Source: an uncultured Acidobacteriota bacterium (GTDB lineage Bacteria > Acidobacteriota > Vicinamibacteria > Vicinamibacterales > Fen-181). From it: a stretch of DNA of 64,000 nt. The stretch is from the NCBI GenBank assembly GCA_963717945.1, contig CAVQXT010000007.1:1006808-1070807 (forward strand). Direction: 5' to 3'. Every line of letters begins with the position of its first letter. Within the stretch, counting starts at the first letter, position 1. The position numbers and the translations under genes are program-made. Of the stretch, positions 11,534 through 27,722 are shown piece after piece. The notes beneath the pieces were generated by a model. The model ran no database searches and was not told the DNA's origin. It saw only the letters and a program-made list of their open reading frames with translations.

Positions 11534-11584
11534 CCAACGCAGACGATCGGCAACGCTCGCTCCTCCTCGCCCCGCAACGACGCC

Positions 11585-12361: not shown

Positions 12362-12365
12362 ATCG

Positions 12366-13547: not shown

Positions 13548-13562
13548 ATGGGATCGCCCGGA

Positions 13563-14738
13563 ATGACGTTCACACCTGGCGATGGAGGGTGTCGACCCTA
13601 TGACATCGTTATTGTCGGGACCGGCCCCGCCGGGTCGGCATTCGCCCGGTCAGTGAGGCGGGCAGCCCCGCACCTCCGGATCCTCGCGATTGAGGAGAAC
13701 CCCCATCCCAGAGACAAGGTCTGCGGCGGCGCGCTGACCTACCGTGCCTTGCCGCTCGTGCGGACGCTCTTTCCAGAGGTCGGCTCCATTCCCACGACGA
13801 GCTTCACCAGGGAGTATCGGCTCTGCTTCCCCAACGGTCGGAGCGTTGCTCGAGGCGACGGCGAGTTCGCCGTCGTCTGTCGGCGCGTGTTCGATGAGGC
13901 CCTGTGGAATGCGGCGCGATCGGATGGCGTGGAGACGCTCGAGGATGCTCGCGTCACCGGGCTGCTGCGGAGCGCCGGACGGGTCACCGGCGTCTGCGTG
14001 GAGCGGCGGTCGGCACGTTGGAACGTCGAGTGCAGGATGGTCGTGGGAGCGGACGGGTCGACGAGCGTCGTGCGACGGTGCACGGGGAGCGGACCATCAC
14101 GCAGCCGAGGAGCAGCCGTCCGACAGTTCATGCGTGGCGTCGAGCCGGCGGCCCGGGCACTTGTGTTCCTCGTCGATCCGGGGTGTCATGGGTATCTCTG
14201 GATCTTCCCCTTCGAGTCGGAGGGGGAGCGGTGGGCCAACGTCGGGTACTTCTGCCATACCGGGCGAGGCGTGGACCCTCGAGGGCGGTATGCGTCGATG
14301 CGGCAACATGCGGTTGCGAGACGATACTTGACTGGCGCGACCGAGGTCACGCCGCTGGAGGGCTTTCCTCTGAACCTGGCCCGAACGCACCGGGGCCGAC
14401 TTGTGCTCGATCGGCGGGTCACCGGCCCCGGGTACGTGCTCGTCGGCGACGCGGCAGGATTGGCGCATCCCGATACAGGCGAGGGAATCGCGTTTGCCTT
14501 GCACTCGGGGAGGATCGCCGGCGAGCTGGCGGCGGAGTCGCTCGACGCGGCCACGTGGGGACCGGCGTACGAACGTCTGGCTGTCCGATTCGCCCAGGAC
14601 GCAGATCCTACGGGGTTGCTGTCGTTCGTGTTCCGAGTCCCGGGCGCGTTGCCCCCCCTGGCCAGGGACTTGTATATGCGTCTGTTGCCATGGTGGCTGA
14701 ACAGGCGGCAAGGAGAGCGCGCGGCATGGCCAGCCTGA
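13563..14738 (+). CDS. FAD-dependent oxidoreductase, geranylgeranyl-reductase family
   Basis: ORF 13548..14738. YDIVIVGTGPAGSAF (dinucleotide fold) and RDKVCGGAL. Start is ATG 13548 or ATG 13563; the latter makes an ATGA overlap with the frame-corrected wzt stop. Confidence 0.75.
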   Translation: MTFTPGDGGCRPYDIVIVGTGPAGSAFARSVRRAAPHLRILAIEENPHPRDKVCGGALTYRALPLVRTLFPEVGSIPTTSFTREYRLCFPNGRSVARGDGEFAVVCRRVFDEALWNAARSDGVETLEDARVTGLLRSAGRVTGVCVERRSARWNVECRMVVGADGSTSVVRRCTGSGPSRSRGAAVRQFMRGVEPAARALVFLVDPGCHGYLWIFPFESEGERWANVGYFCHTGRGVDPRGRYASMRQHAVARRYLTGATEVTPLEGFPLNLARTHRGRLVLDRRVTGPGYVLVGDAAGLAHPDTGEGIAFALHSGRIAGELAAESLDAATWGPAYERLAVRFAQDADPTGLLSFVFRVPGALPPLARDLYMRLLPWWLNRRQGERAAWPA

Positions 14739-16340
14739 GCAAAGAGCTTATCGAAGAGTACAACCGGACCCGTGGCGAGGACGTCGATCGGAGCGTCCTC
14801 TGCCACGCGCCGTTCACGAGCATGAACTTCGAGCAGACGGGCAAGGCCAGCGCCTGCTGCTACAACAGGACCCACGTCTTCGGCGAGTATCCCAGGGACA
14901 GCGTCGAGCAGATGTGGTTCGGCGCGGCGGCGGAACAGCTCCGGAACGACATCCGCCAGGACAGTCTCGAGGGCGGCTGCAGCATGTGCAAGCGGCAGCT
15001 CGAGAGCGGCAACCTCGCCGGCTGCAAGGCCAGGATCTACGACCAGTACGCTCAGGGAACGCCGGAGCAGGGAAGCAGAGTCCTCACGTTGCCATCGCCC
15101 GCGCGGGCCGTTGCGATGCCCAGGGTGATGGAGTTCGAACTCGAGAATACCTGCAACCTCCAGTGCATCATGTGCGACGGGTTCTTTTCCTCGGCGATTC
15201 GCAGACACCGCGAGAAGCAACCGCCTCAGCACAGGCCGTACGACGCCGATTTCGTGAAGCAGCTCGCGGAGTTCATGCCGCATCTCGAGGAGATGAAGTT
15301 TCTCGGCGGCGAGCCGTTCATGATCGGGATCTACTACGACATCTGGGAGCAGGTGGCGCGCGTCAACCCCGGCGTGAAGATCCACATCACGACGAACGCG
15401 ACCACGCTCAACCCGCGCACGAAGACGCTGCTCGAGAAGATGAGGGGGGCGGGGTTGAGGTGTACCTTCTGCGTCTCGATCGACTCGGTGCGGAAGGAGA
15501 CCTACGAGGCGATCCGGGTTGGCGCCTGCTACGAACAGGTGATGGAGAACATCGCGTGGCTCTCGGACTACGCGATGAAGCGGAACGCCTCTCTCGGCTT
15601 CGCCGTCTGCCCGATGGCCATCAATCGGTTCGAGATGCCAGACCTCGTAAGGTTCGCGAGCGAGAGGGGCATCGTCGTGACCTACAACACGGTGCTGAAG
15701 CCGCCCGAGCAGGCGTTGCGCTTCCTGAACCATGAGGAACTCGATGAGCTGATCGCGAACTACGAGAGCCGCATGCCAACACACGGCTCACCGATCGGCA
15801 AGATCAACCTCGACTACTTCACGGGCTACGTGAACCAGGTGAGGGCGTGGAGGGACGAAATCGAGAAACCCAGTGATCAGATGGCCGAGCTCAGGCGCAT
15901 CGACCCGTCATCCCGCCCGCAGGCGCCGGAACTGACGCGGAAGATCCTGCTGGCCAGCATCATCGGAGCCGGCGGCCGGCGGGACCGGCTGCCGCCGGAC
16001 CCCGAACTGGACGGTGTGACGCCGGAAGACTTCCGGGGCTACCTCTGCGCGAAGCTCTCCGAGACTGCGCCGGAGCAGTTCTGGGACGCCTACCTCGCCT
16101 GCCTCGACTGGGTCGCTTCGGAATGCCTGCCGCCGGCCGAGTACCGAGGAGTTTCGGCGCAAGTGGGACGCGCTCCTGAAGATCGCGGTGGGCCTCGTCG
16201 CGAGCGCGAAACTCGCAATACTCTCAGACCTGCTCCGGGGCGATGTGGTCGCGCACCTGCGTTTCATTCTGGCCACGGACATCGCCGTCATCGTGGGGGG
16301 ACTTCATCGGTACGAGAAGTCACCCGCGTCTCACCCCTGA
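14726..16340 (+). CDS. Radical SAM enzyme with an N-terminal SPASM-like Cys cluster; apparent +1 frame break at ~16145
   Basis: ATG 14726 (RBS AGGAGAG) inside ORF 13904..16987. CNLQCIMC (CX3CX2C). The N-terminal region is LCHAPFTSMNFEQTGKASACCYN...GGCSMCKRQ. After 16145 the called frame turns R/G/P-rich, while the +1 frame gives EEFRRKWDALLKIAVGLVASAKLAILSDLL... and stops at 16338-16340. Confidence 0.75.
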
Positions 16341-16493
16341 TCAAACCCCGCACCGGCTACGGACCGCGCAGAACGCGACAGTTGCGTGCAGCCGGCCGGA
16401 CACGAGGGAGTGTAGTATCAGCAGCACGTCGAACGGGCCGGAACCGGACCACGCGTTCCGACCCGGTACCGTTCACGTCGAGGCGGCTGAGAT

Positions 16494-18665
16494 ATGAAGA
16501 CGGTCATCGTGACGCCAGAACTGGCCGGGCTTTGCCCTCAGGGGGGCATCGGGTCATTCGCCTGGCATCTGTCCCGGCTCCTGCGGTCGGTGGGGGAGGA
16601 GGTGACGGTTCTGCTCACGGGACGAGCCCGCCCCGCCCGGATGCGCTGGGCGGGTCGGTACGAAGGGGCGGGCATCGACGTGCGCACGGTCAGCCCGAGG
16701 GCCTTCCCTCCGAACACGATCGGGGCATGGGATTTCGTCGGTCGCGGACATGCCGTCGCGGATGCGATCCCGGGCGACGCCGATGTGGTCTATTTCCAGG
16801 ATTGGCTGGCAGACGGATTCGTTCCGGTTCGCATGAGGCGATTGCAGAGGAGGCGGCACCCTGTGTTCGTGAACGTCCTGCACAGTCCGACGGCCTGGAT
16901 CCGCGAGGCCATGGCCGAGTATCCGCGCCACGTGCTCCACGACATGAGCCTGGATTTCGCCGAGCGCTACGTCGCCGAGCACGTTGACTTCATTGCCTCG
17001 CCGAGTCAGTACATGCTCAGGTTCGTATCGGACCAGGGCTGGCAGTTGCCGGATTCGGATCGTACTGCGGTGCTTGGTTACCCGATTGTGCCGGACTCGA
17101 CGCCACCTGGTGCGCCCAGCTCGTCGCGACCGGGCGAGTTTCGCCGCATCGCGTTTCTCGGGAGATTCGAAGTCAGGAAGGGCACGGGGCTTTTCGTCGA
17201 TGCCCTGCGTCAGCTTCACCGCCGGCGGCCGGAGCTCCTGGACTCGATCGAGGAGATCGCCTTCGTCGGCCGGGAGGGAAACACCGGCGATCTCTCACCG
17301 CGACGCGCGGCGAACCGGCTGTCTTCGCTGCGCGCGCGGATTCGGTTCCTGAGCCGTCTGGACACAGAGGAGGTTCAGGCCCTCCTGCGATCCTGGGCAC
17401 ACGACACGCTGGTGGTGGTTCCCAGCCTCGACGACAACTACCCTTACGTCGTGATCGAAGCGTCGCTCGTTGCCGGCTTGCATGTCATCTGCTCGAACGC
17501 GGGCGGCATGCGCGAGATTCTCCTGCCCGCGGCCGGCGACCAGTTCTTCGACCCTTCCGAGCGGTCTCTCGGCGACGCTCTCGCGCGGTACCTGGCATCC
17601 GGTCCGCGTTCTCAGGCGGGACTGCATCCATATGACTGGAATCGCCACAACCGGGAGTGGCTCGATTTTCACGACCGGGTCCGGCGCGCCAGAGAGCCGC
17701 AACCGGGCGCCCTCGCCGTCTCCAGCAGGCCGACCCGGCACGTGGACGTCTGCATTCCCTTCTTCAATCACGGGGCATACCTGCCGGCGTTGCTCGAAGC
17801 GCTGGCGAACCAGACGCTGTCGGCGGGCTCGGTCACGGTGGTCGACGACGGTTCAACCGACGGTGAGTCGCAGCGCGTTCTTGCTGAGATGGGAAGCAAG
17901 TATGCCGACCGGAACTGGCGCTTCGAGGCCTCGGCGGTCAACAGGGGCGTCAGCGCCGCCAGGAACGCCGCGGCCTCGAAGGGGCATGCCGAGTACCTGC
18001 TGTTCCTCGACGCCGACAACGTGCCCGTTCCCCACATGGTCGAGCGGTTCCTGTCGGCCATCGAGGATTCCGGCGACGACTGCCTGACCTGCTACTTCCG
18101 TGCCTTCGAGGGCAGGCACGCTCCGTTCGAACGGGCCACCGAAGAGGCGGGGAAGTGCGCCATCCGCCAGGTCGTCCCCACCAGGTACGATTTCCTGCCT
18201 CTCGGACCGTGTCTCCCGCTCGGGCTCTTCGACAATTTCTTCGGAGACGCCAATTTCATCGTTCGACGATCGGTCTTCGAAGCCCTCGGAGGGTTCTCCG
18301 AGGAGCCCGAATACCGGTACGACACCCACGAGGATTACGAGTTCCTGCTGCGGCTCATCCTCGCGGGAAAGACCCTGGATGTGGTGCCGGAGGTCCTGTT
18401 CTTCTACCGAGTCACCGGGAGCGGCCTCATGGGGACGACGAGCGAGTACCGGAATCGCCTGCGCGTGCACCGGGCTTACGCCGCGCTCCTGCAGAACGCG
18501 GGCCTGCCCGGCCTCGTGCCGTACGTCTACGGCCTGTACGAGAGGGGCAAGCCGCTGGAGTTCCTGGTGGCTGAAGCGCGACGGGCGCTCCGTCATCCGC
18601 TCGCGGCCGCCGCGACGATCGGTCGGGCGGGGCTGCGGACCCTGTGGAAGCGGTTCGACGGCTGA
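16494..18665 (+). CDS. Bifunctional glycosyltransferase (N-terminal GT4/GT-B + C-terminal GT2/GT-A)
   Basis: ORF 16494..18665. The N-terminal half is GT-B-like. The C-terminal half reads VDVCIPFFNHGAYLPALLEALANQT...VVDDGSTDGES...LFLDADN (GT2 DxD). Confidence 0.8.
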   Translation: MKTVIVTPELAGLCPQGGIGSFAWHLSRLLRSVGEEVTVLLTGRARPARMRWAGRYEGAGIDVRTVSPRAFPPNTIGAWDFVGRGHAVADAIPGDADVVYFQDWLADGFVPVRMRRLQRRRHPVFVNVLHSPTAWIREAMAEYPRHVLHDMSLDFAERYVAEHVDFIASPSQYMLRFVSDQGWQLPDSDRTAVLGYPIVPDSTPPGAPSSSRPGEFRRIAFLGRFEVRKGTGLFVDALRQLHRRRPELLDSIEEIAFVGREGNTGDLSPRRAANRLSSLRARIRFLSRLDTEEVQALLRSWAHDTLVVVPSLDDNYPYVVIEASLVAGLHVICSNAGGMREILLPAAGDQFFDPSERSLGDALARYLASGPRSQAGLHPYDWNRHNREWLDFHDRVRRAREPQPGALAVSSRPTRHVDVCIPFFNHGAYLPALLEALANQTLSAGSVTVVDDGSTDGESQRVLAEMGSKYADRNWRFEASAVNRGVSAARNAAASKGHAEYLLFLDADNVPVPHMVERFLSAIEDSGDDCLTCYFRAFEGRHAPFERATEEAGKCAIRQVVPTRYDFLPLGPCLPLGLFDNFFGDANFIVRRSVFEALGGFSEEPEYRYDTHEDYEFLLRLILAGKTLDVVPEVLFFYRVTGSGLMGTTSEYRNRLRVHRAYAALLQNAGLPGLVPYVYGLYERGKPLEFLVAEARRALRHPLAAAATIGRAGLRTLWKRFDG

Positions 18666-18762
18666 CGAGGCGGCGGCGACGCCGCGGACCACTCCGCGAC
18701 GCGCGGGTGTTCACGCGGTTCCATGGTAGGATGCCGTCTCGCAGGCCTCAGTCGAGATCACG

Positions 18763-19725
18763 GTGGTTCAGGAGTTCAAATCTCTGCCAAAGGACGGAGG
18801 GTCGAAAGCGCCGCGGTCGCCGACGGTGTCGGTCGTGATCCCGACGCTCAACGCCGAGCCCTTTCTGCGGGGCATTCTCGAGGCGGTCTTCACCCAGGAA
18901 CCGACGAGCCCGTCGGAAGTCGTCCTGGTGGACTCGATGTCCACCGACGCCACGCGGGACATCGCCGCCTCCGTGGCCCGCGTCCGGGTCGTCCCGATCT
19001 CCGACTTCTCGCACGGCCGCGCCCGGAACCTCGGCGCGCGCGCGGCGACGGGGGAGATCGTCGTCATGCTGACGCAGGACGCGATGCCGGCCGGCAGGAC
19101 GTGGCTCGCTGCGCTTCTCACCGCCTTCGCCGACCCGCAGGTCGTGGCGAGCTACTCGCGGCAGGTCCCGCGGGCCGACGCGAACCCGATGGAACGGTTC
19201 TTCCTCGAGCGGCGATTCCCGCCGCGCCCGCCGGTGCGACGAGCGCGGCGCGGCGACGGCCCGCTCACGCTGGAGGACGTGTTCTTCTCGAACGTCAGCG
19301 CCGCGATCCGCCGGGAGGCGCTGGTCTGTCATCCGTTCGACGAAGGGCTGATCATGAGCGAGGATCAGCAGTTCTCCCGGGACGTGATCGCGGCCGGGCA
19401 CGCGGTGGTCTACCAGCCGGAGTCGGTCGTGATCCACTCCCACGACTACTCGGCGGCCACGTGTTTCAGGCGCTACTTCGACAGCGCGTGCTCGCTCAAG
19501 GTGATCTTCCCGGAGCACGGGCTCGCAAGAACCGTGGCGATGGCCGCCAGCTACCTGCCCGACGAGGCCAGGTACATGGTGCGCGCGCATCCGCGGTCGC
19601 TCCCGAGGTACCTCCTCTATAATCTCGCGAAGGTCGGCGGCACCCTGGCCGGCCTCATGGGCGATCGGCTGCCGCGCCGGGCCGCCCGGGCCCTCAGCCT
19701 GCACCGGTACCACTGGGAGGAGTAG
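18763..19725 (+). CDS. GT2-family glycosyltransferase (rhamnosyltransferase-like)
   Basis: ORF 18763..19725 contains VSVVIPTLNAEPFLRGILEAV...VLVDSMSTDATRDIA...MLTQDAMP. Confidence 0.8.
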   Translation: MVQEFKSLPKDGGSKAPRSPTVSVVIPTLNAEPFLRGILEAVFTQEPTSPSEVVLVDSMSTDATRDIAASVARVRVVPISDFSHGRARNLGARAATGEIVVMLTQDAMPAGRTWLAALLTAFADPQVVASYSRQVPRADANPMERFFLERRFPPRPPVRRARRGDGPLTLEDVFFSNVSAAIRREALVCHPFDEGLIMSEDQQFSRDVIAAGHAVVYQPESVVIHSHDYSAATCFRRYFDSACSLKVIFPEHGLARTVAMAASYLPDEARYMVRAHPRSLPRYLLYNLAKVGGTLAGLMGDRLPRRAARALSLHRYHWEE

Positions 19726-19806: not shown

Positions 19807-20466
19807 TTATGCCGGCTGCCCGTCTTCGAGGGCTCCGCTCGACGGCGCGGCGTCGTCCGCCTCCCAGCGTTCGGGAGGCGCGGCGTCGTTCGCCGCCCAG
19901 CGTTCGGGAGGCACGGCGACGTTCCCGGTCGACAGGAGCCGGTCGTCGCTGATGCGCAACCGGTCGTGCTCGATCCGGTCCACGCCGAGCGCACTGATCG
20001 CCAGCTGGCCCGTGTCCAGGCGGAAGACCAGGCGCTTCTCGCGCAGGTACCACAGGTGGAACTCCACCATCTCGATCGGCATGCGGAGCAGGCGGGAGAT
20101 CTCGTACTCACCGAGGCCGGGCATCCGCATCTCGGTCCGGCGCTGCACGTAGAGCAGCGACAGGATCCGCTGCCTGGTGGCGGTGTCTTCGGCGAACGCG
20201 GTGCCGTGCGTCGCCTCCGATGCGAGCTTCCACTTGCGGTTCCAGTATTCCTGGTACTTCGCGTCGTAGCCGGCCCGCGTTTCGGGGTCGCCCAGGATCG
20301 CCCTGGCCCTGCTCAGCCGGCGGAACCTGGCTTCGTCGCTGGCTTCGCCGATGTCCGGGTGGCACTTCTTGGCCAGGTGGCGAAACACGCGGTCGATGGT
20401 GTCCTCGTCGGCGTTGGGGCTGAGCTGCAGAAGGTCGTAGTAGTCGACAAACGGTTCCTCGGTCAC
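19807..20466 (-). CDS. J-domain (DnaJ-like) protein with C-terminal winged-helix-like region
   Basis: ORF 19807..20466, GTG start. DYYDLLQLSPNADEDTIDRVFRHLAKKCHPDIG (HPD motif). A C-terminal 33-nt tandem duplication encodes PPERWAANDAA/PPERWEADDAA. Confidence 0.75.
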   Translation of the reverse strand: MTEEPFVDYYDLLQLSPNADEDTIDRVFRHLAKKCHPDIGEASDEARFRRLSRARAILGDPETRAGYDAKYQEYWNRKWKLASEATHGTAFAEDTATRQRILSLLYVQRRTEMRMPGLGEYEISRLLRMPIEMVEFHLWYLREKRLVFRLDTGQLAISALGVDRIEHDRLRISDDRLLSTGNVAVPPERWAANDAAPPERWEADDAAPSSGALEDGQPA

Positions 20467-20574
20467 ACGTCACTCCCTGGTTCGGGCGGAGCCCACTCAC
20501 CGCGCCGGCACGGTCCCACCCGTCAGAATGTATCGGCCGCTCGACACCACAGGGCCAGTCCCCCCCGATCAAGG

Positions 20575-20643
20575 CCCGTGGTATCCTCCCTTCCCGTGCG
20601 CACCGGCCGTCCGAATTCCCCCTGACGGTGGAGCGTCTTCGCC
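20575..20643 (+). pseudogene. Degenerate copy A of the yigZ promoter-proximal/5' coding segment
   Basis: Aligns with 23431-23526 and 27298-27392 (tatcctccc..cgtgcgca..tccgaattc..ctgac.gt.ga.cg) but carries indels. Confidence 0.5.
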
Positions 20644-20660
20644 ACGGGAGACCGCGCCCG

Positions 20661-21859
20661 ATGATCGACCCCGTCGAACGTGCCGCCCGCGAAATGCGCA
20701 ACCAGGCGAAAGTCGTGGCGGTGGTCATGTGGGCGGCGTTCGCGCTCAACTGGGCCGACCCCCACGCTTGTGGATCGCTATCTCGGGGGGCGTCAAAGGC
20801 GCTGACTTCGTTCAGTTCTACAGCCTGGCCACCGCGAGTCGGTTACATGACTTTGCCGCCCTCACATCGTCCCGTGAGCTGCACATCGTGCAGGCCAGGG
20901 CCGTCCCGCAGGCCGTCGGGGACAACTTCCCCGCAGTGTACCCACCGCAGGTCGGGCTTGCGCTCCAGCCGCTCGCGTTCTTCTCGTACCCGGTCGCCCT
21001 CGCACTGTGGACCCTGCTGACCTGGGCTCTTTACGGCACGGCTACCTGGCTTCTCTGGAGGTGCTGCCCGCGCCTGCGGCCGTACGGCCGGACAGTCGCG
21101 TGGGTGGCATGCGCATTCCCGGCGTTCTGGTGGCTCGTCACGACCGGCCATCTGTCTGCAGTGGCGTTGGGAGCGCTGGCGCTGGCCTGCCTTGCCCTGG
21201 ACCGGAAACGGTCCTGGCTGGCCGGGTGCGCCATCGGGTTGCTGGCATACAAATGGACGCTGCTGCTTCCGGCTGTCGCGGTTTGCCTCCTTGCCGGTGA
21301 ATTCACGATGCTGCTGGGCGCCGCGGCCGTCACCGCAGGCCAACTCGGCCTCGCGGTGCCGTTTGTCGGCCTGGACGGCGTCCGCCAGCACTTTGTCACG
21401 ATGTTCGACTTGAGTCGAACGCCGGATGTGCTGGCCGCCAAGCCATACATGATGTACTCGCTGCGTACCTTCTGGGCGACCCTCGTGCCTGACCGTCTCG
21501 CGGTCGTCCTGTATCTCGCCTCGGCGCTGTGCGTCTTGATCGTGGCCGCTCGCGCGTGGCGTCGAACTTCGTCAGCAACAGGCCGCGTCGGGCTCCTGGC
21601 CTGCGCGGTCGTGCTGGCGACGCCGCACTTGTTTGCGTACGACCTCGTGGTCCTCGTCCCGGCGATCCTGCTCGCGGCAGACACGGCCCTGGCGCTGCCA
21701 CGCGGAAGCGCCGCGAGGACGATGCTGACTCGAACGAACCATGCCGTGTTCTTCGTGATGTTGTTCAGCCTTGTGGCCGCGGTGGCGCGGATTCAACTCG
21801 CCACCCCGCTGCTATTCTTCTGGCTCGTTCTGCTCGCCCGTTCCGTCCGCCTCCGTTGA
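20661..21859 (+). CDS. DUF2029/GT87-like polyprenol-phosphate-dependent membrane glycosyltransferase; apparent -1 frame break at the C5 run 20759-20763
   Basis: ORF 20528..21859 carries the core (GADFVQFYSLA plus many TMs). The N-terminal TM segment MIDPVERAAREMRNQAKVVAVVMWAAFALNWADP lies in the frame of ORF 20628..21020. One extra C in the run would join ADP-PRLWIAISGGVKGADFVQFY. Confidence 0.65.
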
Positions 21860-23338
21860 CGCTGGGCCGACCGGCGTCGGTGCGGGCAAGGGAGGCCCGC
21901 CGGCCCCCGGCGCACGTTCCGGCTTCATGGAGAATCGGCGGATTTCAACCGGCGCGTCCTCGGCGCCGAGCCATATCCCCAGGCTTGCGCGGTCGTCGTC
22001 TTCTGCCGCGGCGAAGCTGAGGTCCATCACCGTCCACCGGTCCGTCAGCACCAGCTCCTCGCGCAATCCCAGCGAGTGCCAGGGCGCATGGTCCTGCCAC
22101 AGCCCCACCGCCACCCGGCGCAGGCGCTCCGCTCGAATCTCCAACTCCACTTGGTATCGACGGCAGGCGGAGACCGAACCACAGGGCCGCGTCAGGCGCA
22201 CGTCCCACGGCTGCCCCCCGGGCCGCGGGATCACCAAGCGGACGACGCCCGGGTTCCCCCGCTCGACACGGGCTTCGGCCCCATCGTCCAGGTGCAATTG
22301 CCCGCGGCAGATCAGCCAGATTCGAAGTTGTCCTGCAAACCGCCAGAGTTCACGCACCCGCCGCTGGTAATTGCCTTGAAAGAGCAGCACCTGAACCACC
22401 GGCAGGGGCGCGAGCGACGGAGAACGCCAGGCGCACTGCAGCGCCAGAATCAGCGGCAGGTAGCATTCGTAAAAGGGGTGGCTGAAGCGCCACCATTCGA
22501 TCGCGGCCGCCTCCCCCCGCTCGTGGACGTAGTAATTCCAATTGTGAGCGACCTTCGTCCGAACCATCGCGACGTACAGCGCGGCGCCGGCCGCCAGCAG
22601 TGGGCTCAGGCGAACCAGAGAGACCAGGAGCGCGAGGAACGCCGCCAGTTCGGCGGCGTAGACTCGATTCACCAGGATGCGGGTTCGGGACCGGCCCAGC
22701 CCGGTGGCCAGCGTCGAGACCCCCGCCTGCAAATCGCCGGCGCGGTCCTGGAATTCGTGGATGATGATTCCCTTGATGCCCAGACCGAGCGACCAGATCG
22801 CCCCGCATGCGGGAAACAGCCACCACCACGGGCCGGCGCCCGAGTGCGCCGTCCCGGCGCTGGCGAGCACCGAGATGGTGTAGAGGCAGGGCACGACGTG
22901 CGCTCCCAGGGTGTCGCACAGCACGCCGGCGACGCCGCGCTCCTTCAAGCGAAGTGGTGGAGCCGAATAAATCGTCGGCAGCAGATACTCGACGGCGAGC
23001 AAGCCGAGACTCAGCCGCGAATAGTGGAACAAGGCGGCGGGAGCGAAGCCCAGCGCCAGCGCCACCGCGCAGCCCGCGTATTTCTGCCAGGAGGGCAGCC
23101 GGCTGAGGGAGTTCTCCTTTCCCGTCCGACGGTCGGCCTCGATGTCGAACAGGTCATTGATGAGATGCCCGTAGGAACCCGCGCACAGCCCCACGAAGAG
23201 GATCAGGCCGATGCACCCCGCGGCAGCCGCCGGAGGAACATCGTACAGGAGCACCGAGGCGTAGCAGAAGGCGAGAACCGGCGGGATCTTGGAATCCCAC
23301 CAGTTGTCGGTCCGTGCTAACTCTCGCAGCGAGGGCAT
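21812..23338 (-). CDS. UbiA-family prenyltransferase fused to a C-terminal CBM-like beta domain
   Basis: ORF 21812..23458, with the likely start at ATG 23338 (MPSLRELARTDNWWDSKIPP). HLINDLFDIEADRRTGKEN (NDxxDxxxD). The C-terminal ~200 aa are soluble (GQPWDVRLTRP...YQVELEIRAE...VAVGLWQDH). It overlaps the convergent GT87 gene by 48 nt. Confidence 0.7.
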   Translation of the reverse strand: MPSLRELARTDNWWDSKIPPVLAFCYASVLLYDVPPAAAAGCIGLILFVGLCAGSYGHLINDLFDIEADRRTGKENSLSRLPSWQKYAGCAVALALGFAPAALFHYSRLSLGLLAVEYLLPTIYSAPPLRLKERGVAGVLCDTLGAHVVPCLYTISVLASAGTAHSGAGPWWWLFPACGAIWSLGLGIKGIIIHEFQDRAGDLQAGVSTLATGLGRSRTRILVNRVYAAELAAFLALLVSLVRLSPLLAAGAALYVAMVRTKVAHNWNYYVHERGEAAAIEWWRFSHPFYECYLPLILALQCAWRSPSLAPLPVVQVLLFQGNYQRRVRELWRFAGQLRIWLICRGQLHLDDGAEARVERGNPGVVRLVIPRPGGQPWDVRLTRPCGSVSACRRYQVELEIRAERLRRVAVGLWQDHAPWHSLGLREELVLTDRWTVMDLSFAAAEDDDRASLGIWLGAEDAPVEIRRFSMKPERAPGAGGPPLPAPTPVGPASTEADGTGEQNEPEE

Positions 23339-23430
23339 CGATTGATCTGGACCATCCCGCAATGGTGTTGACCGTTTCGGTCGTCTGCCAATGACGCTCG
23401 CGGACAGCATACACGCCCTGGGCCTTCGTG

Positions 23431-23526
23431 CCGTGCCATCCTCCCTTTTCGTGCGCATCGACCGACCCTCCGAATTCGCCCCGACCGTCGAACGCTCCCG
23501 CTTCTACGCGCTCCTGGCGCCGCTCC
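23431..23526 (+). pseudogene. Copy B of the yigZ promoter-proximal/5' coding segment (remnant)
   Basis: 9 mismatches in ~95 nt versus 27298-27392 (hand count). ORF 23391..23609 reads VRIDRPSEFAPTVERSRFYALLAPL and then diverges. Confidence 0.7.
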
Positions 23527-23716
23527 TCGACCGGTTGGTCCACAAGGCGTATACGATCGCCCTGAATGGCCCCTCGCGACGGAAACCGGAGGACACCAAT
23601 AAGGCCTGACACCCAGACAGACGCCCGACGTCGCTACGCTCCGATCACGATGCGTGGAATAGGTTCCGGCGCGCCGGCGGGCCCGCATGCCATTCCGTCA
23701 CCTGATATGATTCCCG

Positions 23717-24142
23717 GTGATGGACCGCGGCCGCTCCTCGGGTGCCTCCGTGCCGTCGCGACGAACCGTGATTCGCGGCGCCTTCTGGCTGCTGGCCGCC
23801 GCGGCCGTGGGCGTCTTCGTCTCGATGACCACCCGCATCGAGAAGGCCGTCAAGCGGCCGCGACCACTCACCATTCCGCCCGGCAGCGGCGATGCGATCA
23901 CGTTCGTGGACGACGTCATCGTCTGCCGCGGGGACCGGAAGGTCCGGGTGTTCTCCGCCCGGTGCACCCATCTCGGCTGCCGGATCTCCCAGACCGCGGG
24001 TGGGCTGATCGCCTGCCCGTGCCACGGGTCGAAGTTCAGGCCCGACGGCAGCGTGGCCTCAGGCCCCGCGACGCGCCCGCTCGTGGAACTTGCGCACACC
24101 ATCGACCCGCGATCGGGAGCCCTGGTCGTTCATGTCTCCTGA
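23717..24142 (+). CDS. Rieske [2Fe-2S] protein with twin-arginine signal
   Basis: ORF 23717..24142. SRRTVIRGAFWLLAAAAV (Tat-like), CTHLGC and CPCHGS. Confidence 0.85.
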   Translation: MMDRGRSSGASVPSRRTVIRGAFWLLAAAAVGVFVSMTTRIEKAVKRPRPLTIPPGSGDAITFVDDVIVCRGDRKVRVFSARCTHLGCRISQTAGGLIACPCHGSKFRPDGSVASGPATRPLVELAHTIDPRSGALVVHVS

Positions 24143-27014
24143 GGGTTCGCAGCCTCACGCGCCTCGACGCTGGTCGCTCCACTCGTCGTGGGGGGAGCTG
24201 GCGTTCGCGGGCCTCCTTGTCGCCATGGCGTCGGGCGTCGCGCTGGCCTTGCCCTACGACGCCGGCCGTCCGTACGACTCGGTGGCGTGGCTGATCCTGA
24301 CCAACCCGGCGGCGTCCTTCTTCCGGAACGTCCACTACTGGGCAGGGCAGTGGTTCCTTGTCCTGACCCTCGCGCACACCTGGGACCATCTGTCGAGATG
24401 GACCGAGACGCGGGTCCCCCGAAGCAGGTGGTGGCGAGTCACGGCGTCGCTGCCGCTTGCCGGGTTCGTGATGTTCTCGGGCTTCCTGTTGAAGGGGGAC
24501 GCGGAGTCGCAGCAGGCGCTGCGTCTCGTCACGGCCCTGCTGGACCAGGTCCCTGTCGTCGGCCATCTGCTCGCCGTCTCCCTGTTCGGGTCCGAGGGAC
24601 ACCGCCAGATCCTCTACGTGCACCACGTGGCGACGGCCTCGATGCTGACGTGGGTCTTTACCGCGGAACATGCCCGCGCCCTCTGGCCGCGCTTCGTCTC
24701 GGTCGTCGAAACGGTGGTGCCGATTGCGTGGCTGAGCTTGTTCCTGACGCCCGCGCTGCATGACGGGCTCGACCCTGTCGCCAAGGGGCCCTGGTATTTC
24801 CTGGGTCTGCAGGAGGCCCTCCACTGGATCAGCGAGCCGTTGTGGCTCGTTGCGGTCGCGGTCGCGGTCTTGATCGTGATCCTTCGGCTGCCGCGATGGT
24901 CCGAGCGCCGGGCCCGCACAGCCAAGTGGGCGCTGGTGGTTGTGACCGTCGGCTACGCGATGCTGACGGTGGTCGGCGTGTGGTTTCGCGGAGAGAACTG
25001 GTCGCTCGTCGAGCCGTGGAGCGCGAACGCGGATATCTCGCGGTCCACCGGCCTCGAACTGGCCGGCCTCGGGCGCTGGTGGGGACCGCCGGTGGCAGAC
25101 GTCGTCGCGCACGACATCCCGGTTGTCCTCGGGCGCCGGGAGGGGTGCCTGTTCTGTCATGCCGGCATGGCCGGGTTGTCACCCTCGCACAGCGCGGAGG
25201 CGGTGGGCTGCGCGTCGTGTCACGACGGAAATCCGTTCAGCCTGGACAAGACGACGGCGCACGCGGGGCTCGTGCTGATTCCGGGCAACCTCGCGTCGGC
25301 GAGTCGCACGTGCGGCACGCCGGCCTGCCATCCCTCTCAGGTCGAGCGGGTGTCGCGCTCGCTGATGACGACGATGGCCGGTGTCGTGTCAGTCGATCGC
25401 GCGGTGTGGGGAACGCCGGCGCGGGAGGCGCGACCGGCGAACGTCGAGACCCTCGGGCGGACGGGCGCCGACAGCCACCTGAGACAGTTGTGCGCGTCGT
25501 GCCATCTCGGGGCGGTGAAGACGGTGCCCGGTCCGACGCGCGAGGACTCGCGGGGCGGCGGCTGCAACGCCTGCCATCTGCAGTACTCGCCGGCGGCGCT
25601 GGCCGACTTGTCGCGCCGAACCACCGCGGCGCCGCGCGCGCACCCGGACGTCTCGATCGCGATTCAGCCAGTCGCCTGCTTTGGCTGCCACAGCAGGTCG
25701 GGACGGATCTCGACGAGCTACGAGGGGTGGAGCGAAATCTCCGGCAAGGCTGAAGCCTCGCCCAACGCTCGAAGCGAGGGATGGGGCGCTACTCCGGTAG
25801 GGCGGGGCTCAAGCCCTGCCAAGACTCGCCGTCTCGCGGATGGCCGCGTCTTCATCTTCGTCTCTCCCGACGTTCACGCGCGCAGCATGGACTGCGTGGA
25901 CTGCCACACCGCGCGGGAAGTGATGGGCGACGGCGCGACCCACGCGCGTCAGTACCAGGCCGTGCGGGTGCAGTGCGAGGACTGCCACTCGCGACGGCTC
26001 TCGGCTTCGGGCTCCGGGCTTCAGGCCTCAGGCCGTGCCACACCGTTCACCACCGACGGCCTGCTGCCTGCTATTTCGTCCGATCGTCTCGACTCGGAGT
26101 CCCGGAAGATCGCGGAACTACGGGGCCGGAACAGGCCGGGCGAGCTGTTCCTCGCCACGGCCAGGGGCGGCGACGCGCTGATGAACACCGGCGTCGATCC
26201 GCAAGGCGTGGCCTGGCTCGCGGCGAAACGATCCGGCAAGCGCCTCCCTCTCAAACCGCCGGCGGCGGTGTGCGTGCGGGGCGCCGGGCACGAGCGGCTC
26301 TCGTGCATCAGTTGCCACGCGGCCTGGGCGCCGCGCTGCCCGCAGTGCCACACGGCGTTGGATCCGCAGGCGAAGGCCGTGGATCTGCTGGACGGCCGGA
26401 CGACCGAGGGCGCCTGGATCGAGACGCCGGGAGAATATCGCGCCGTGCCGCCGACACTCGGCATTCGCCTCGACCCGACGGGGCAGGCGGCGCGAGAAGC
26501 CGTGGACACGTTCATCCCGGGGATGGTGATGACGCTCGATCGGAACCAGGCGGCCGGCGCGAAGCCGGACCTGGTGTTCCGGCGCCTGTACGCGCGTGCC
26601 TTCTCGCACACGATCGGCAAGACGGCGCGGTCCTGCCAGTCGTGCCACGCGGACCCCGTGGCGCTCGGATACGGGGAGGGGACGCTGCGCTACGGCCGGG
26701 ATGGTGACCGTGGGCGGTGGCGCTTTGCGCCGCGCTTCGCGCCGGGTCCGGACGGCCTGCCGGCCGACGCCTGGATCGGATTCCTGCAGGAACGGAGCGC
26801 GGCGACATCCACGCGCCGGGACGTGCGGCCCTTCACCGTTGCGGAGCAGAAGAGGATTCTGACCGTCGGCGCGTGCCTGACCTGTCACGCACCCTCAGGG
26901 AATGGCACGGAACTGAAGTTCTGTGCCGACAGGAGGAAGGCCTGTGCGCCGATTCCAGACTGGCGCGCCGCGCTCGCACGCGTGACTCCGAAGTGTCTGG
27001 TCCCGTCTTGGTGA
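24132..27014 (+). CDS. Cytochrome b (b6 + subunit-IV-like) fused to a periplasmic multihaem cytochrome c (11 CXXCH + 1 CX4CH)
   Basis: ATG 24132 within ORF 24090..27014, overlapping the Rieske stop. HYWAGQWFLVLTLAH (13 residues between the His), HHVATASMLTWVFTAEH (14 between), and GPWYFLGLQE (PEWY-like). Haem motifs follow: CLFCH, CASCH, CGTPACH, CASCH, CNACH, CFGCH, CVDCH, CEDCH, CISCH, CPQCH, CQSCH, CLTCH. Confidence 0.85.
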   Translation: MSPEGSQPHAPRRWSLHSSWGELAFAGLLVAMASGVALALPYDAGRPYDSVAWLILTNPAASFFRNVHYWAGQWFLVLTLAHTWDHLSRWTETRVPRSRWWRVTASLPLAGFVMFSGFLLKGDAESQQALRLVTALLDQVPVVGHLLAVSLFGSEGHRQILYVHHVATASMLTWVFTAEHARALWPRFVSVVETVVPIAWLSLFLTPALHDGLDPVAKGPWYFLGLQEALHWISEPLWLVAVAVAVLIVILRLPRWSERRARTAKWALVVVTVGYAMLTVVGVWFRGENWSLVEPWSANADISRSTGLELAGLGRWWGPPVADVVAHDIPVVLGRREGCLFCHAGMAGLSPSHSAEAVGCASCHDGNPFSLDKTTAHAGLVLIPGNLASASRTCGTPACHPSQVERVSRSLMTTMAGVVSVDRAVWGTPAREARPANVETLGRTGADSHLRQLCASCHLGAVKTVPGPTREDSRGGGCNACHLQYSPAALADLSRRTTAAPRAHPDVSIAIQPVACFGCHSRSGRISTSYEGWSEISGKAEASPNARSEGWGATPVGRGSSPAKTRRLADGRVFIFVSPDVHARSMDCVDCHTAREVMGDGATHARQYQAVRVQCEDCHSRRLSASGSGLQASGRATPFTTDGLLPAISSDRLDSESRKIAELRGRNRPGELFLATARGGDALMNTGVDPQGVAWLAAKRSGKRLPLKPPAAVCVRGAGHERLSCISCHAAWAPRCPQCHTALDPQAKAVDLLDGRTTEGAWIETPGEYRAVPPTLGIRLDPTGQAAREAVDTFIPGMVMTLDRNQAAGAKPDLVFRRLYARAFSHTIGKTARSCQSCHADPVALGYGEGTLRYGRDGDRGRWRFAPRFAPGPDGLPADAWIGFLQERSAATSTRRDVRPFTVAEQKRILTVGACLTCHAPSGNGTELKFCADRRKACAPIPDWRAALARVTPKCLVPSW

Positions 27015-27019
27015 TCCTG

Positions 27020-27146
27020 CCCGCCTCGCCGATGTCCGGGTGGCATTTCCTGGCCAGGCGGCGAAACACCCGGTCGATGGTGCCTTCGTCCGCGTTGGGG
27101 GTGAGTTGCAGCAGGTCGTAGCAGTCGACGAACGGGTCCTCGGTGA
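27020..27146 (-). pseudogene. Truncated copy (first ~42 codons) of the J-domain gene
   Basis: ~17 mismatches in 127 nt versus 20340-20466 (hand count). It translates VTEDPFVDCYDLLQLTPNADEGTIDRVFRRLARKCHPDIGEA. Homology stops about 5 nt downstream of the multihaem gene's stop codon (27012-27014). Confidence 0.75.
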
Positions 27147-27317
27147 CTGGTCACCCCCCTCGGCCGGGCGCATCAAGCGGCCCGTCTCGACACAAAACCG
27201 TTCACCACGGTGCGTCGGCCGCTCGACGGGCGAGCATCGGTTCCCACGGCCGGAGGCCCATCCAGCCCCGCGCCAGGCAGGCGCTGCGCCCGCCGGACCG
27301 TGCTATCCTCCTCGTCC

Positions 27318-27722
27318 GTGCGCATCGACCGACCCTCCGAGTTCTCCCTGACCGTCGAACGCTCCCGCTTCTACGCGCTGCTGGCGCCGCTCGCCTCGCC
27401 GGGCGATATCGACCTGCTGCTGAAGAACAGGCGCCGCGACTACCGCAAGGCCGTTCACCATTGCTGGGCCTACCGCTGCCGTGATGCCGCCGGCGCCATT
27501 GTCGAGGTGTCGAAAGACGATGGGGAAGTGGGACATCCGGGCCGGGTCCTGCTCGAACTGCTGAAGAAGCACGATCTCGAGGGGGTGCTCGTCGTCTCGC
27601 GGATCTTCGGCGGCGTGAAGCTCGGCGTCGGCGGCGTCTCGCGGGCGTTTCGCGATGCGGGGCAGGGAGCCATCAACAGGATGGCTCAGGGCTCAGGACT
27701 CAAGGCTCAGGGCTCGGAGTGA
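27318..27722 (+). CDS. yigZ: YigZ/IMPACT-family (UPF0029) protein
   Basis: ORF 27210..27722, plausible GTG start at 27318. VERSRFYALLAPL...AVHHCWAYRC...SKDDGEVGHPG...VVSRIFGGVKLGVGGVSRAF. The last ~12 codons are encoded by a GGCTCAR heptamer tract. Confidence 0.75.
   Translation: MRIDRPSEFSLTVERSRFYALLAPLASPGDIDLLLKNRRRDYRKAVHHCWAYRCRDAAGAIVEVSKDDGEVGHPGRVLLELLKKHDLEGVLVVSRIFGGVKLGVGGVSRAFRDAGQGAINRMAQGSGLKAQGSE

Follow-up and report, generated by a model that had tools for sequence, protein, structure and literature searches.

Scars consistent with two nested insertion-duplications upstream of a yigZ-like gene in an uncultured acidobacterium

The region described here extends from a J-domain gene to a yigZ-like gene in a 64,000-nt stretch of acidobacterial DNA, all of which was analysed and which is referred to as the window. 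The J gene (19807..20466, minus strand) is complete and looks functional. It encodes a 219-aa protein (Pfam DnaJ, E = 4e-16) that is 81 to 86% identical to the J proteins of two relatives, L001 and L057, and TRF detects a tandem duplication of 33 nt towards the 3' end of the gene (19844-19924). An exact look-up found no record of this protein, so there are no strain-level variants to compare; the window's own cytochrome and yigZ proteins likewise gave no 100% match. A metagenome scan with the J protein returned 41 loci, all of them distant (about 55 to 67% amino acid identity) and none with common neighbours, which makes them uninformative on the J/yigZ locus. The relatives compared below are metagenome assemblies, represented by 73 loci.

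Every open reading frame between 19.8 and 27.7 kb can be assigned. The non-coding gaps are no longer than 378 nt, so that the coding space is completely accounted for, and no integrase gene, att site or attC site that would point to an integrase-mediated island or integron is found there. Scans for tRNAs and Rfam families found none in the region. An earlier note on this DNA had suggested looking for compositional deviation. The window has 62 to 73% GC throughout, with no sharp island boundary, and the lower GC3 of GT87/UbiA and parts of the glycan cluster (0.75 to 0.82, against ~0.90 in backbone genes) is suggestive only.

The functional yigZ-like gene (27298..27722, plus strand; Pfam UPF0029/Impact_N, E = 7e-24) starts with GTG at 27318 and stops at 27720-27722. 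Its product is 85 to 93% identical to the proteins of relatives. Proteins of this group consist of 125 to 134 aa and match PF01205 as their sole Pfam domain. They have no C-terminal DUF1949 domain and thus differ from the two-domain YigZ of Escherichia coli (UPF0029/Impact_N plus DUF1949); single-domain Impact_N/UPF0029 protein is the most fitting name for the product. The start codon is preceded by TGCTATCCT (27301-27309). The element TGnTATCCT is conserved 8 to 9 nt before the GTG in all contexts, even where an upstream xTG is out of frame, and homology among relatives always restarts a few bases ahead of it. The earlier proposal that "tatcctcc" belongs to the yigZ promoter therefore holds up, and TGnTATCCT probably represents the extended -10 box of a near-leaderless yigZ. 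A simple scan found no canonical sigma-70 promoter, so that all statements on promoters rest on conservation.

Parts of both genes are repeated between them. Self-comparison of the window by blastn confirmed that these repeats are real and far above chance level. The 5' end of the J gene recurs at 27023-27158 (86.8% identity to 20342-20477 over 136 nt, E = 7e-41), and the 5' end of yigZ (27298-27392) recurs at 23431-23525 (90.5% over 95 nt, E = 1e-30). A third, decayed yigZ copy, which shows ~78% identity to both others over 20573-20635 and has a 4-nt deletion, occupies 20573-20645. The repeats of the earlier note are thus borne out where it placed them, and their similarity is highly significant on formal alignment. 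The rest of the 64 kb contains no further copies, and a search of all 73 loci revealed no additional yigZ or J stubs outside the window and one relative, L005.

The decayed copy, z' (20573..20645, plus strand, delimited by alignment), is an old yigZ 5' stub. It consists of TGGTATCCT (20579-20587), a GTG at 20596, and about 18 decayed codons with the 4-nt deletion, followed by GGGAGA and then by the ATG (20661) of a GT87 glycosyltransferase gene. This deletion and 14 substitutions are common to the stubs of the window and L005; in both, the -10-like element is retained and the coding part has decayed. The GT87 gene (20661..21859, plus strand; Pfam GT87, E = 8e-19 on the frame 20528-21859) is broken between its ATG and the domain, with the N-terminal helix in another frame. 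It has two 1-nt insertions relative to L005, whose own GT87 gene carries an in-frame stop. The next gene (21812..23338, minus strand) encodes a UbiA-family prenyltransferase with a C-terminal extension (Pfam UbiA, E = 1.5e-16), which is 83 to 92% identical to the protein of L005 and 90% identical to that of L068. With its minus-strand orientation UbiA converges on GT87 and points away from the second yigZ copy, so that the two genes form a convergent pair and not the plus-strand module that had been proposed. Judging from the retained element, z' might drive GT87, and promoter capture at this gene is plausible; the disrupted frame in the window and the in-frame stop in L005 make selection for such capture less credible.

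The second copy, z'' (23431..23525, plus strand; 90.5% identical to 27298-27392), appears to be the resident yigZ 5' end, cut by a second insertion. It comprises TGCCATCCT (23434-23442), a GTG at 23451 and codons 1 to 25, so that the joints of the two stubs, at codons 18 and 25, lie 21 nt apart. The sequence CGTGCCGTGC upstream of z'' is also present in L005, and its spacer is of the type seen in L005 (CCCTTTTC) and L068 (CCCTCTTC). The spacer of the functional yigZ (CCTCGTCC) differs from this resident type and is contiguous with foreign DNA. Five of the 95 positions of z'' show private changes; a private T->C change of the first -10 base has turned the element into CATCCT.

An IS21-family remnant (23526..23690, plus strand) adjoins z''. 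The last 27 codons of istB and its stop (23526-23609, stop at 23607-23609) are fused in frame to z'', and the stop is followed by about 80 nt that presumably represent the 3' end of the insertion sequence (IS). The tail matches positions 208 to 230 of 232 in NCBIfam NF038214 (E = 4e-4) and 209 to 234 of 238 in PF01695 (E = 0.01), and tblastn places it at the C termini of annotated istB genes. The remnant falls short of an intact IS21 element: istA and a target-site duplication are missing, inverted repeats are not recognisable, and only positions ~208 to 232 of the IstB profile are covered. Since blastn homology to L057 restarts at 23691, there is no room for istA, and since the z''-istB joint lies inside istB, it is not a transposition joint. 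IS21 is found upstream of the Rieske gene in no sampled genome of the T1 type, defined below, which counts against the explanation preferred here. The 72-codon yigZ-IstB chimera is a scar reading frame created by the fusion of z'' to the istB tail. The earlier statement that the region holds no integrase, transposase or tRNA stands for integrase and tRNA and has to be amended for the istB 3' end.

The respiratory module (23691..27019, plus strand), identified by its Pfam domains and a conserved upstream motif, consists of a Rieske gene (23717-24142) and a cytochrome b/multihaem c fusion gene (24090/24132-27014). The Rieske gene has its own element, TGATATGAT (23703-23711), found also in L057 and, as TGGTATGAT, in L056. 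With this element present, the z'' -10 box mutated, and the way from z'' to Rieske interrupted by a stop codon and the IS tail, promoter capture is unnecessary here; the capture proposed for both modules is plausible for GT87 and unsupported for Rieske. The module shows 85.0% nucleotide identity to that of L057 and 84% to that of L056, and L057 and its sister L061 are only 80.8% identical to each other. Its nearest neighbour is L057 in 150 of 200 bootstraps and L056 in the other 50, a weak signal. A mosaic test of identities to the left and right of the junctions, which bears on the earlier suggestion to compare cargo with flanks, gave mostly star-like relationships, with weak incongruence for Rieske-cytochrome only.

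The J fragment, j' (27022..27147, minus strand), retains codons 1 to 42 of a J gene that was joined to the cytochrome gene; by tblastn, residues 1 to 42 of the L057 DnaJ protein align to 27147-27022. It had been described as still in frame. The 42 codons are indeed uninterrupted, but the start codon has been lost (GTC, not GTG) and 10 of 124 nt show private substitutions. Codons 43 to the end (about 530 bp) are deleted, to within 5 to 7 nt of the cytochrome stop. With these losses j' is a pseudogene in decay. Two derived sites are common to the J 5' copies on the left and right. The intergenic regions attached to them were compared by alignment. The left one, IG_L (20467..20572), is a conserved version, with 84% identity to L005, 78% to L057 and 87% over 98 nt to L061-63. 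The right one, IG_R (27148..27297), is highly diverged and retains no more than TCGGCCGCTCGAC and, on the J side, the stretch GTCACCCCCCTCGG; it is 54 to 63% identical to all other copies and has no blastn-short match in any relative. Identity between IG_L and IG_R is no higher than ~55%, compared with 88 to 90% in the flanking coding repeats.

Relatives retain several other states of the locus. The empty site that the earlier note had suggested looking for is present in L001, in the order GT2-J-yigZ. An intact J-intergenic-yigZ arrangement with the conserved intergenic region is found in L001 and in all T1-type genomes, in which Rieske-cytochrome occupies the slot between a sigma54 activator gene (S, 2846-4063 on the minus strand in the window) and J. 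Four contigs (L057, L061-63) have the order Rieske-cytochrome-complete J-yigZ-A, where A is an APH/M23/aminotransferase gene, and L058/59 have Rieske-cytochrome-yigZ-A. L005 has J-z'-GT87-UbiA-yigZ: it is collinear with window positions 16000 to 23436 and then runs directly into an intact yigZ behind UbiA and an intergenic stretch, without the window's 23526-27297 and thus without Rieske-cytochrome, j' or IG_R. UbiA is located 3.3 kb upstream of yigZ in L068, where a different 3.3-kb insert occupies the UbiA-yigZ joint and there is no trace of Rieske-cytochrome, j' or stubs. The genes just 3' of yigZ (27795-28677) are also found in L068 and are absent from T1-type genomes. The contig of the closest relative, L065, ends just short of the J/yigZ region.

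Downstream of yigZ the backbone (A, GT28, GT4) is conserved; it groups the window with L060, L068 and L005, the T1 genomes forming a separate pair, in a star-like phylogeny of about equidistant lineages (84 to 89% nucleotide identity). The gene immediately upstream of yigZ differs by lineage and is of at least seven kinds (cytochrome, J, UbiA, tRNA-edit, TadE, PepSY_TM and a 463-aa gene). In soil Acidobacteria, the position just before yigZ is a hot spot of rearrangement. Among the sampled genomes, only the window has z'', the istB remnant, Rieske, cytochrome, j' and a diverged intergenic region before yigZ. A search of the relatives for a donor-type genome, in which UbiA would immediately precede yigZ and J would be missing, found none.

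The earlier note explained all of this by one Campbell integration of a circle that carried an internal J 5'-intergenic-yigZ 5' fragment and the entire 6.4-kb cargo, the middle yigZ copy being a later or internal duplication. Such an event does predict the outer geometry, a complete J and truncated yigZ followed by a truncated J and complete yigZ, and its empty site exists in L001. However, L005 has z', GT87, UbiA and an intact yigZ without j', IG_R or Rieske-cytochrome, so that the two arms differ in age; the 14 changes of z' are shared with L005, yet j' and z'' are window-specific; cytochrome-J-yigZ is native in four other contigs, so that no crossover in the resident J is needed to account for j'; and the intergenic copies have diverged far more than the coding repeats beside them. 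A single event is thus extremely unlikely. What survives of that proposal is the Campbell geometry itself, truncated copy, insert and complete copy being the footprint of a single crossover, and its diverged donor is plausible.

The S-J slot of the window is filled by a glycan-biosynthesis cluster, B1 (4345..19725, plus strand), delimited by Pfam matches and the gene calls of L064/L065. It encodes a PMT_2-type GT-C (F, the first gene of the cluster), a GT4, a large GT4, Wzm, Wzt, a FAD oxidoreductase, a radical-SAM-like ORF, GT4+GT2 and GT2. Between S and F lies a hairpin, CGGCCCG-ACAC-CGGGCCG (4339..4356), which is empty in the window and is the exact insertion point of Rieske-cytochrome in L056 (by blastn, window 3610-4345 corresponds to L056 1-732 and window 4345-5937 to L056 4088-5679). 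A 12-nt similarity around the L056 insert is explained by the GC-rich hairpin arms and was rejected as a target duplication. The S-proximal intergenic DNA of L064 and L061 is visibly alike over about 320 nt, after which the two genomes part into B1 or Rieske; scored local alignments cover only the S-proximal part of this.

These junctions bring up an intragenomic relocation, in which an ancestral Rieske-cytochrome pair at S/F, as in L056, reached the yigZ joint, about 19 kb away, by IS21-mediated or duplication-loss steps. The exact correspondence of the L056 insert to ~4345, a clean hairpin in the window, the IS21 remnant adjoining the pair and the two derived sites common to the J 5' copies are all compatible with it. 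It offers no reason for the J 5' remnant behind the cytochrome gene or for the long and diverged J-yigZ intergenic region beyond it. Moreover, only T1-type genomes have cytochrome next to J, L056 having F after its cytochrome gene. The spacer of the functional yigZ is of the non-resident type, and S directly adjoins F, without the pair, in L064 and L065 as well as in the L005 contig. Relocation is accordingly very improbable.

The scars may instead record two nested insertion-duplications of different age, brought about by single crossovers of small circles, a reading that we hold with evenly balanced confidence. In the older event, common to the window and L005, a J-yigZ locus like that of L001 would have taken up by recombination a small DNA molecule with a yigZ 5' fragment, GT87 and UbiA, leaving z' (promoter and about 18 codons) before GT87 and an intact yigZ behind UbiA; the presence of this insertion in L005, with the same 14 changes in z', marks it as the older one. 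In the second event, the donor genome would have had Rieske-cytochrome-J-yigZ as its native order, and a fragment of it would have circularised at the joint now read as yigZ codon 25-istB 3' end. A single crossover between this circle and the locus, somewhere in the ~95 nt that the two yigZ 5' ends have in common, would have turned the resident 5' end into z'' and placed the IS21 scar, Rieske, cytochrome, J and an intergenic region before yigZ. The redundant incoming J would afterwards have lost about 530 bp and its start codon, while its promoter region drifted. Since the order Rieske-cytochrome-J-yigZ is native in L057 and L061-63, the right arm would have come along with the respiratory genes, and j' would be what is left of a passenger gene rather than the outcome of a crossover in the resident J. 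Because yigZ probably has a self-contained extended -10-like promoter and needs no upstream sequence, nearly anything could be joined to it on that side.

Several observations fit this reading. For the inner event, direct repeats flank the insert, z'' is truncated at codon 25, yigZ is complete, and L005 represents the empty site; for the outer event, z' occurs in the window and L005, and J-intergenic-yigZ is intact in L001, L057 and L061-63. A reciprocal mosaic of the kind expected of a crossover may be present, judged from about 8 to 12 informative nucleotides that include an 8-nt hypervariable spacer: z'' has a spacer and upstream sequence of the L005/L068 type, and yigZ has a different spacer, contiguous with the foreign IG_R and j'. 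No circular intermediate, recombinase or intact IS was seen at the locus; the mechanism is read from the scars, from which we infer both the circles and the direction of the second event.

That direction rests on parsimony, since the lineages are roughly equidistant and recombining. The opposite polarity, with the window arrangement ancestral and L005, ultimately also L001, derived by deletions between direct yigZ 5' repeats, is rather unlikely. Direct repeats of 75 to 95 nt are good substrates for deletion, the phylogeny is star-like, and the decay of j' (10/124 nt) and z'' (5/95) is similar to that of z' since the window/L005 split (6/~70), which makes the second event about as old as that split. 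Yet distances in gene A would require at least two independent exact losses, L068 has UbiA near yigZ and an unrelated insert with no vestige of the module or its stubs, the intact J-intergenic-yigZ of L001 and all T1 genomes is what an ancestral state should look like, and the duplicated structure would still need an insertion-duplication as its origin.

Linear DNA could have served in both events, either by homology-facilitated illegitimate recombination, with one end anchored in yigZ or downstream and the other joined illegitimately, or by template switching during replication. Each insert has one homologous side (yigZ) and one non-homologous joint (z'-GT87 leader; z''-istB), much as in the scheme of one anchor and one illegitimate end that has been put forward for sequential displacement at the T6SS and Rhs loci (PMC5361080). 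Classical recombination of this kind is predicted to delete recipient DNA, whereas both events here duplicated 75 to 95 nt with no detectable deletion, and duplications of homologous segments have been traced to single crossovers of circles (PMC3240628). This route is a minor possibility, although one of some substance. An assembly artefact, a chimeric contig of two co-occurring strains, might be suspected because the window lies in a 700-kb metagenome-assembled contig, several genes contain frameshifts and the L065 contig ends near the region. But chimeras join at identical sequence, and here the novel joints are non-homologous (yigZ codon 25-istB tail; cytochrome stop-J codon 42), the repeats are 9 to 13% diverged and the stubs show pseudogene-type decay; an artefact is scarcely credible.

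Two nested insertion-duplications by circles, the preferred reading, would make the locus a cleanly resolved natural change of gene order at the 5' end of a conserved gene in uncultured Acidobacteria, with empty, intermediate and donor-type states all kept in extant relatives. Glycan-synthesis genes, like the respiratory module of Rieske and cytochrome b-multihaem, would have been shuffled between lineages with no dedicated mobile-element machinery. The locus further suggests that a self-contained extended -10/leaderless promoter may free the upstream DNA to vary, and that the promoter itself may be left behind as a stub. A far-reaching extension is highly unlikely: that the yigZ 5' end is a recurrent capture site, from which cassettes are excised with a short yigZ 5' segment and re-inserted into the yigZ of other genomes, each event leaving a portable extended -10 stub able to drive the captured gene, in an integron-like accretion by host recombination without an integrase. 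For annotation, j', z', z'' and the yigZ-IstB chimera should be treated as scars, not genes. Insertion-duplication itself is of a known kind, and the locus is an instructive, fairly ordinary case of bacterial gene-order reshuffling.

Among known systems, the IS21 family (istA/istB) is represented by 27 residues that match the extreme IstB C terminus, a 3' scar alone. Elements of the SXT/R391 type insert into the 5' end of prfC and supply a new 5' end and promoter, using a tyrosine integrase and defined att sites. As in the window, insertion takes place at a gene 5' end, the intact gene is regenerated from incoming DNA and the old 5' end becomes a stub; the window has no integrase, att core or excision functions. 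The closest parallel to the proposed events is Campbell insertion-duplication by a non-replicating circle with a truncated chromosomal gene, such as a suicide plasmid, which also leaves direct repeats with a truncated and a complete copy, causes no target deletion and requires no integrase. Single crossovers of circles have been shown experimentally to leave duplications of 109 to 950 bp, including lacZ duplications (PMC3240628), and the 75- to 95-nt repeats of the window are close to the lower end of this range. Compared with those experiments, the events proposed here are natural and ancient, took place between diverged lineages without a vector backbone, used a gene 5' end including its promoter as the homologous segment, and followed each other at one gene, the second with an IS21 scar at its closure joint. 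T6SS effector-immunity and Rhs/CDI orphan arrays grow by sequential displacement at a conserved anchor (PMC5361080 and references therein). They resemble the window in that a conserved gene end serves as the anchor, new modules displace older remnants into ordered stub arrays and intermediate states survive in extant relatives. Their constant part is a 5' anchor with variable or orphan 3' ends downstream, and their cargo consists of toxin-immunity pairs, whereas the additions in the window lie upstream, leave promoter-bearing 5' stubs and bring in metabolic or cell-envelope genes.

The J/yigZ locus is built around repeats of two gene starts, recovered both by the repeat search and by a self-blastn of the window. 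The 5' end of the DnaJ gene J is found at 20342 to 20477 and again at 27023 to 27158 (87% identity over 136 nt; E value of 7e-41), and that of yigZ at 23431 to 23525 and 27298 to 27392 (90.5% over 95 nt; E value of 1e-30). The repeat search adds a decayed third yigZ 5' copy at 20573 to 20635 (~78%, with a 4-nt deletion), and neither search finds further copies elsewhere in the 64 kb. The repeats claimed in the earlier note are thus real. The gene order is sigma54 activator gene (S), glycan cluster B1 (4345 to 19725; first gene F; PMT_2, GT4s, Wzm/Wzt, radical SAM, and GT2s), J (19807 to 20466, minus strand), the left intergenic region IG_L (20467 to 20572), the yigZ stub z' (20573 to 20645), GT87, UbiA (21812 to 23338, minus strand), the second stub z'' (23431 to 23525), an IS21 remnant with the 3' end of istB (23526 to 23690), the Rieske gene (23717 to 24142), a cytochrome b/multihaem-c fusion (ending at 27014), the J fragment j' (27022 to 27147), the right intergenic region IG_R (27148 to 27297), yigZ, and A, an APH/M23/aminotransferase gene. 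The DnaJ, GT87, UbiA, Rieske, and cytochrome assignments come from Pfam, as does that of yigZ, the name used here for a single-domain UPF0029/Impact_N protein (27318 to 27722). The 3' end of J contains a 33-nt tandem duplication (19844 to 19924; 2.5 copies, 91%), which adds ~10 residues (a PPERW.A.DAA repeat) relative to the 209-residue J proteins of the relatives L057 and L061.

The J protein was used to scan genomes, and mapping of the loci by tblastn and blastn yielded two close Acidobacteriota MAGs, L001 and L005. In L001 (GT2, J, yigZ), nothing separates J from yigZ, which is the empty site that had been predicted. L005 is collinear with window positions 16000 to 23436 at 85% nucleotide identity (GT4GT2, GT2, J, z', GT87, UbiA) but has an intact yigZ directly after the UbiA-side homology and lacks 23526 to 27297. 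The stub z' is common to both genomes, with 14 substitutions and the 4-nt deletion shared, whereas j', IG_R, z'', and the Rieske-cytochrome pair at this site are specific to the window. Thus, the two arms, which had been ascribed to a single event, did not form together.

The native context of the Rieske-cytochrome pair was read from contigs of cytochrome and yigZ homologues. L057 and L061 to L063 share an arrangement, designated T1, in which S is followed by Rieske-cytochrome, a complete J (minus strand), yigZ, and A, and then by GT28, GT4, and further genes. L058 and L059 have tRNA-edit, Rieske-cytochrome, yigZ, and A, the cytochrome stop codon abutting GTGCTATCCT. The gene order before yigZ is tRNA-edit in L060, S-Tad-TadE in the P0122 contig, PepSY_TM in L066 and L067, and UbiA, a toxin-antitoxin pair, and three genes in L068 to L073. 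Downstream of yigZ, window positions 29851 to 38190 match the conserved backbone. These arrangements and the backbone match suggest that the cytochrome-J-yigZ adjacency is ancestral synteny; it is native to the T1 genomes, so the Rieske-cytochrome pair is not the cargo foreign to yigZ that the earlier note had assumed. The right arm (cytochrome, j', IG_R, and yigZ) appears to be a piece of a T1-type locus with a shortened J, and the window would combine an L005-type genome at the left with a T1-type fragment at the right, overlapping in the yigZ 5' end.

The older event, in which GT87-UbiA came in and z' was left (event 1), is read as an insertion because J, the intergenic region, and yigZ are intact in L001 and in all T1 genomes. 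Insertion is also the most parsimonious reading of event 2, in which Rieske-cytochrome came in and z'' was left, since neither L005 nor L068 bears any sign of it. The fragments j' and z'' have decayed about as far as z' has since the split of the window and L005, so event 2 is old. This decay, together with the near equidistance of the lineages, would also suit the reverse polarity, with the window-type arrangement coming first, which is a possible reading, although the absence of any trace of event 2 in L005 or L068 speaks against it.

Both events show a truncated copy, the insert, and a complete copy, with nothing deleted, and the recombination geometry proposed in the earlier note is retained. 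In E. coli, duplications of this kind (109 to 950 bp) were attributed to single crossovers by circles with truncated homology, whereas the outcome expected of classical homology-facilitated illegitimate recombination is loss of recipient DNA (PMC3240628). Each insert could have entered by a single crossover of a circle carrying truncated yigZ homology. At its start, z'' has the upstream sequence and the spacer of the resident kind, as in L005 (spacer CCCTTTTC) and L068 (spacer CCCTCTTC). The spacer of the functional yigZ, CCTCGTCC, differs from these and adjoins IG_R and j' without a break. Immediately downstream of yigZ, the genes are again resident in type, being common to L068 and absent from T1 genomes. 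A single-crossover mosaic is thus weakly discernible. By backbone distances, the window groups with L060, L068, and L005, and L057 with L061, whereas the Rieske-cytochrome sequence of L057 is closer to that of the window (85.0%) than to that of L061 (80.8%), an incongruence that weakly favors transfer.

The fragment j' is decayed. In the window, the cytochrome stop codon is followed within 5 to 7 nt by codon 42 of J, whereas the complete J of L057 ends 10 nt from the cytochrome stop. The start codon of j' is GTC, and it has 10 private substitutions, compared to 2 or 3 in functional J copies; it is 86 to 88% identical to every J gene, compared to 91 to 94% among the J genes themselves. IG_L is the conserved version of the J/yigZ intergenic region; for IG_R, no match was detected among the relatives.

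After codon 25 of yigZ, the z'' frame runs on as LDRLVHKAYTIALNGPSRRKPEDTNKA to a stop. The similarity of this tail to IS21 IstB profiles is confined to their final ~25 positions (NF038214, E value of 4e-4; PF01695, E value of 0.01), and the tail also matches the C termini of annotated istB genes. Homology to L057 restarts at 23691, just ahead of the conserved TGATATGAT and the Rieske GTG. The novel joint is therefore marked by an IS21 scar, contrary to the earlier view that transposable elements had left no trace. The resulting 72-codon open frame (23391 to 23609, plus strand; 52 codons from the GTG at 23451), with the first 25 yigZ codons fused in frame to the last 27 IstB codons, is a junction scar that a gene caller would probably report as a hypothetical protein. 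An intact IS was considered and rejected, as only the istB remnant is found in the region. An integrase-type island was also rejected, since all coding space of the region is assigned to genes and no tRNA or Rfam match was found there. The window has a single tRNA gene, for tRNA-Arg (anticodon TCG; 55072 to 55145, minus strand), which lies far from yigZ, inside an open reading frame (54484 to 55620) whose GC3 looks coding-like; a TPP riboswitch (Rfam RF00059, 63 bits; 54151 to 54246, minus strand) is similarly distant.

The promoter-like element proposed for yigZ is conserved: in every context compared, TGnTATCCT precedes the conserved GTG (VRIDRP...) by 8 to 9 nt. Upstream xTG codons are out of frame in L058 and L060, so this conservation is not for coding, and homology across all contexts starts 2 to 9 nt upstream of the element. 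We infer an extended -10 promoter that works independently of upstream sequence and serves a leaderless or near-leaderless yigZ, which would explain why the joint falls exactly there; a simple sigma-70 scan found no canonical promoter. The element stands before the functional yigZ (TGCTATCCT, ending at 27309) and, in altered form, in z'' (TGCCATCCT, ending at 23442); Rieske has an element of its own (TGATATGAT, ending at 23711). The stub z' also keeps the yigZ element (TGGTATCCT, ending at 20587; TGTTATCCT in L005), although its coding part has decayed, and GGGAGA and the ATG of GT87 come after the stub, making promoter capture by GT87 plausible. The N terminus of GT87 is shifted out of frame in the window (20740 to 20790, two 1-nt insertions relative to L005) and interrupted by an in-frame TAG in L005, which may reflect assembly error or real decay. 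Rieske needs no such capture, as had been suggested for it, because it has its own element and both a stop codon and the tail of the IS lie between it and z''. In z'', moreover, the first base of the -10 element carries a private T-to-C change.

The slot between S and J varies as well. The upstream neighbors in L057 (DUF192 and S) map to window positions 2470 to 4063. In L056 (S, Rieske-cytochrome, F), the pair (733 to 4087) is inserted exactly at window position ~4345, a hairpin. S adjoins F, as in the window, in L005's own contig (L064) and in the closest relative, L065 (contig_53951 of ERZ25039489), whose F gene is 94% identical at the nucleotide level and whose contig ends ~2.5 kb before the J-yigZ region. 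As printed, the sequences of L064 and of L061, a T1 genome, have ~320 nt of S-proximal intergenic DNA in common and then diverge into B1 or Rieske-cytochrome, which makes these two alternative occupants of the slot. The AT-rich S-Rieske intergenic region of L057 (6228 to 6605; ~380 nt) has no local-alignment match to its counterparts in the window, L056, and L061; it may represent a further insertion scar or have a regulatory role. F has an apparent frameshift (4419 to 4606), with ~60 N-terminal residues in another frame relative to L056; this and the GT87 frameshifts could be long-read assembly errors or real pseudogenization.

The space between yigZ and A holds Methyltransf_21, an unknown open reading frame, and cupin in the window (27723 to 29835), DUF6326/DinB/SWIB in L060 (10421 to 13868), and nothing in L057. 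In L068, the toxin-antitoxin pair and three unannotated minus-strand genes (545 to 3851) lie between UbiA and yigZ. With variable DNA on both sides, yigZ thus forms a small conserved island. A heptad-like GGCTCAG/CCTGAGC repeat forms the 3' end of yigZ (27683 to 27720; AQGSGLKAQGSE) and recurs at 59706 to 59777 and, in the opposite orientation, in the L005 UbiA-yigZ intergenic region (~13600 to 13692, reverse complement). A 126-nt, partly palindromic element (36135 to 36260 and 54316 to 54441, 94%; 34-nt fragment at 41972 to 42005), one copy of which lies between GT4 and metallophosphatase backbone genes, looks MITE- or REP-like. Tandem arrays at 47331 to 47500, 56040 to 56378, 56870 to 57000, and 58627 to 59013 (19-, 33-, 56-, and 65-nt units) have a GC-rich palindromic core (CGCGAGCCAGGAGGCTCGCG...CACACA) in common and, because whole units are conserved, look REP/BIME-like rather than CRISPR. 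Positions 47560 to 47783 match an L057 intergenic region (17360 to 17583, 83%) at a different backbone position.

The locus is a well-documented example of an already known kind of genome rearrangement. Structurally, Campbell-type insertion-duplication is the closest match. In terms of how the locus evolved, its nearest counterparts are the T6SS effector-immunity and Rhs orphan arrays, for which sequential displacement next to a conserved anchor has been described (PMC5361080); in contrast to those arrays, the window has its additions upstream of the anchor, and what remains of earlier states are 5' stubs that putatively carry promoters.
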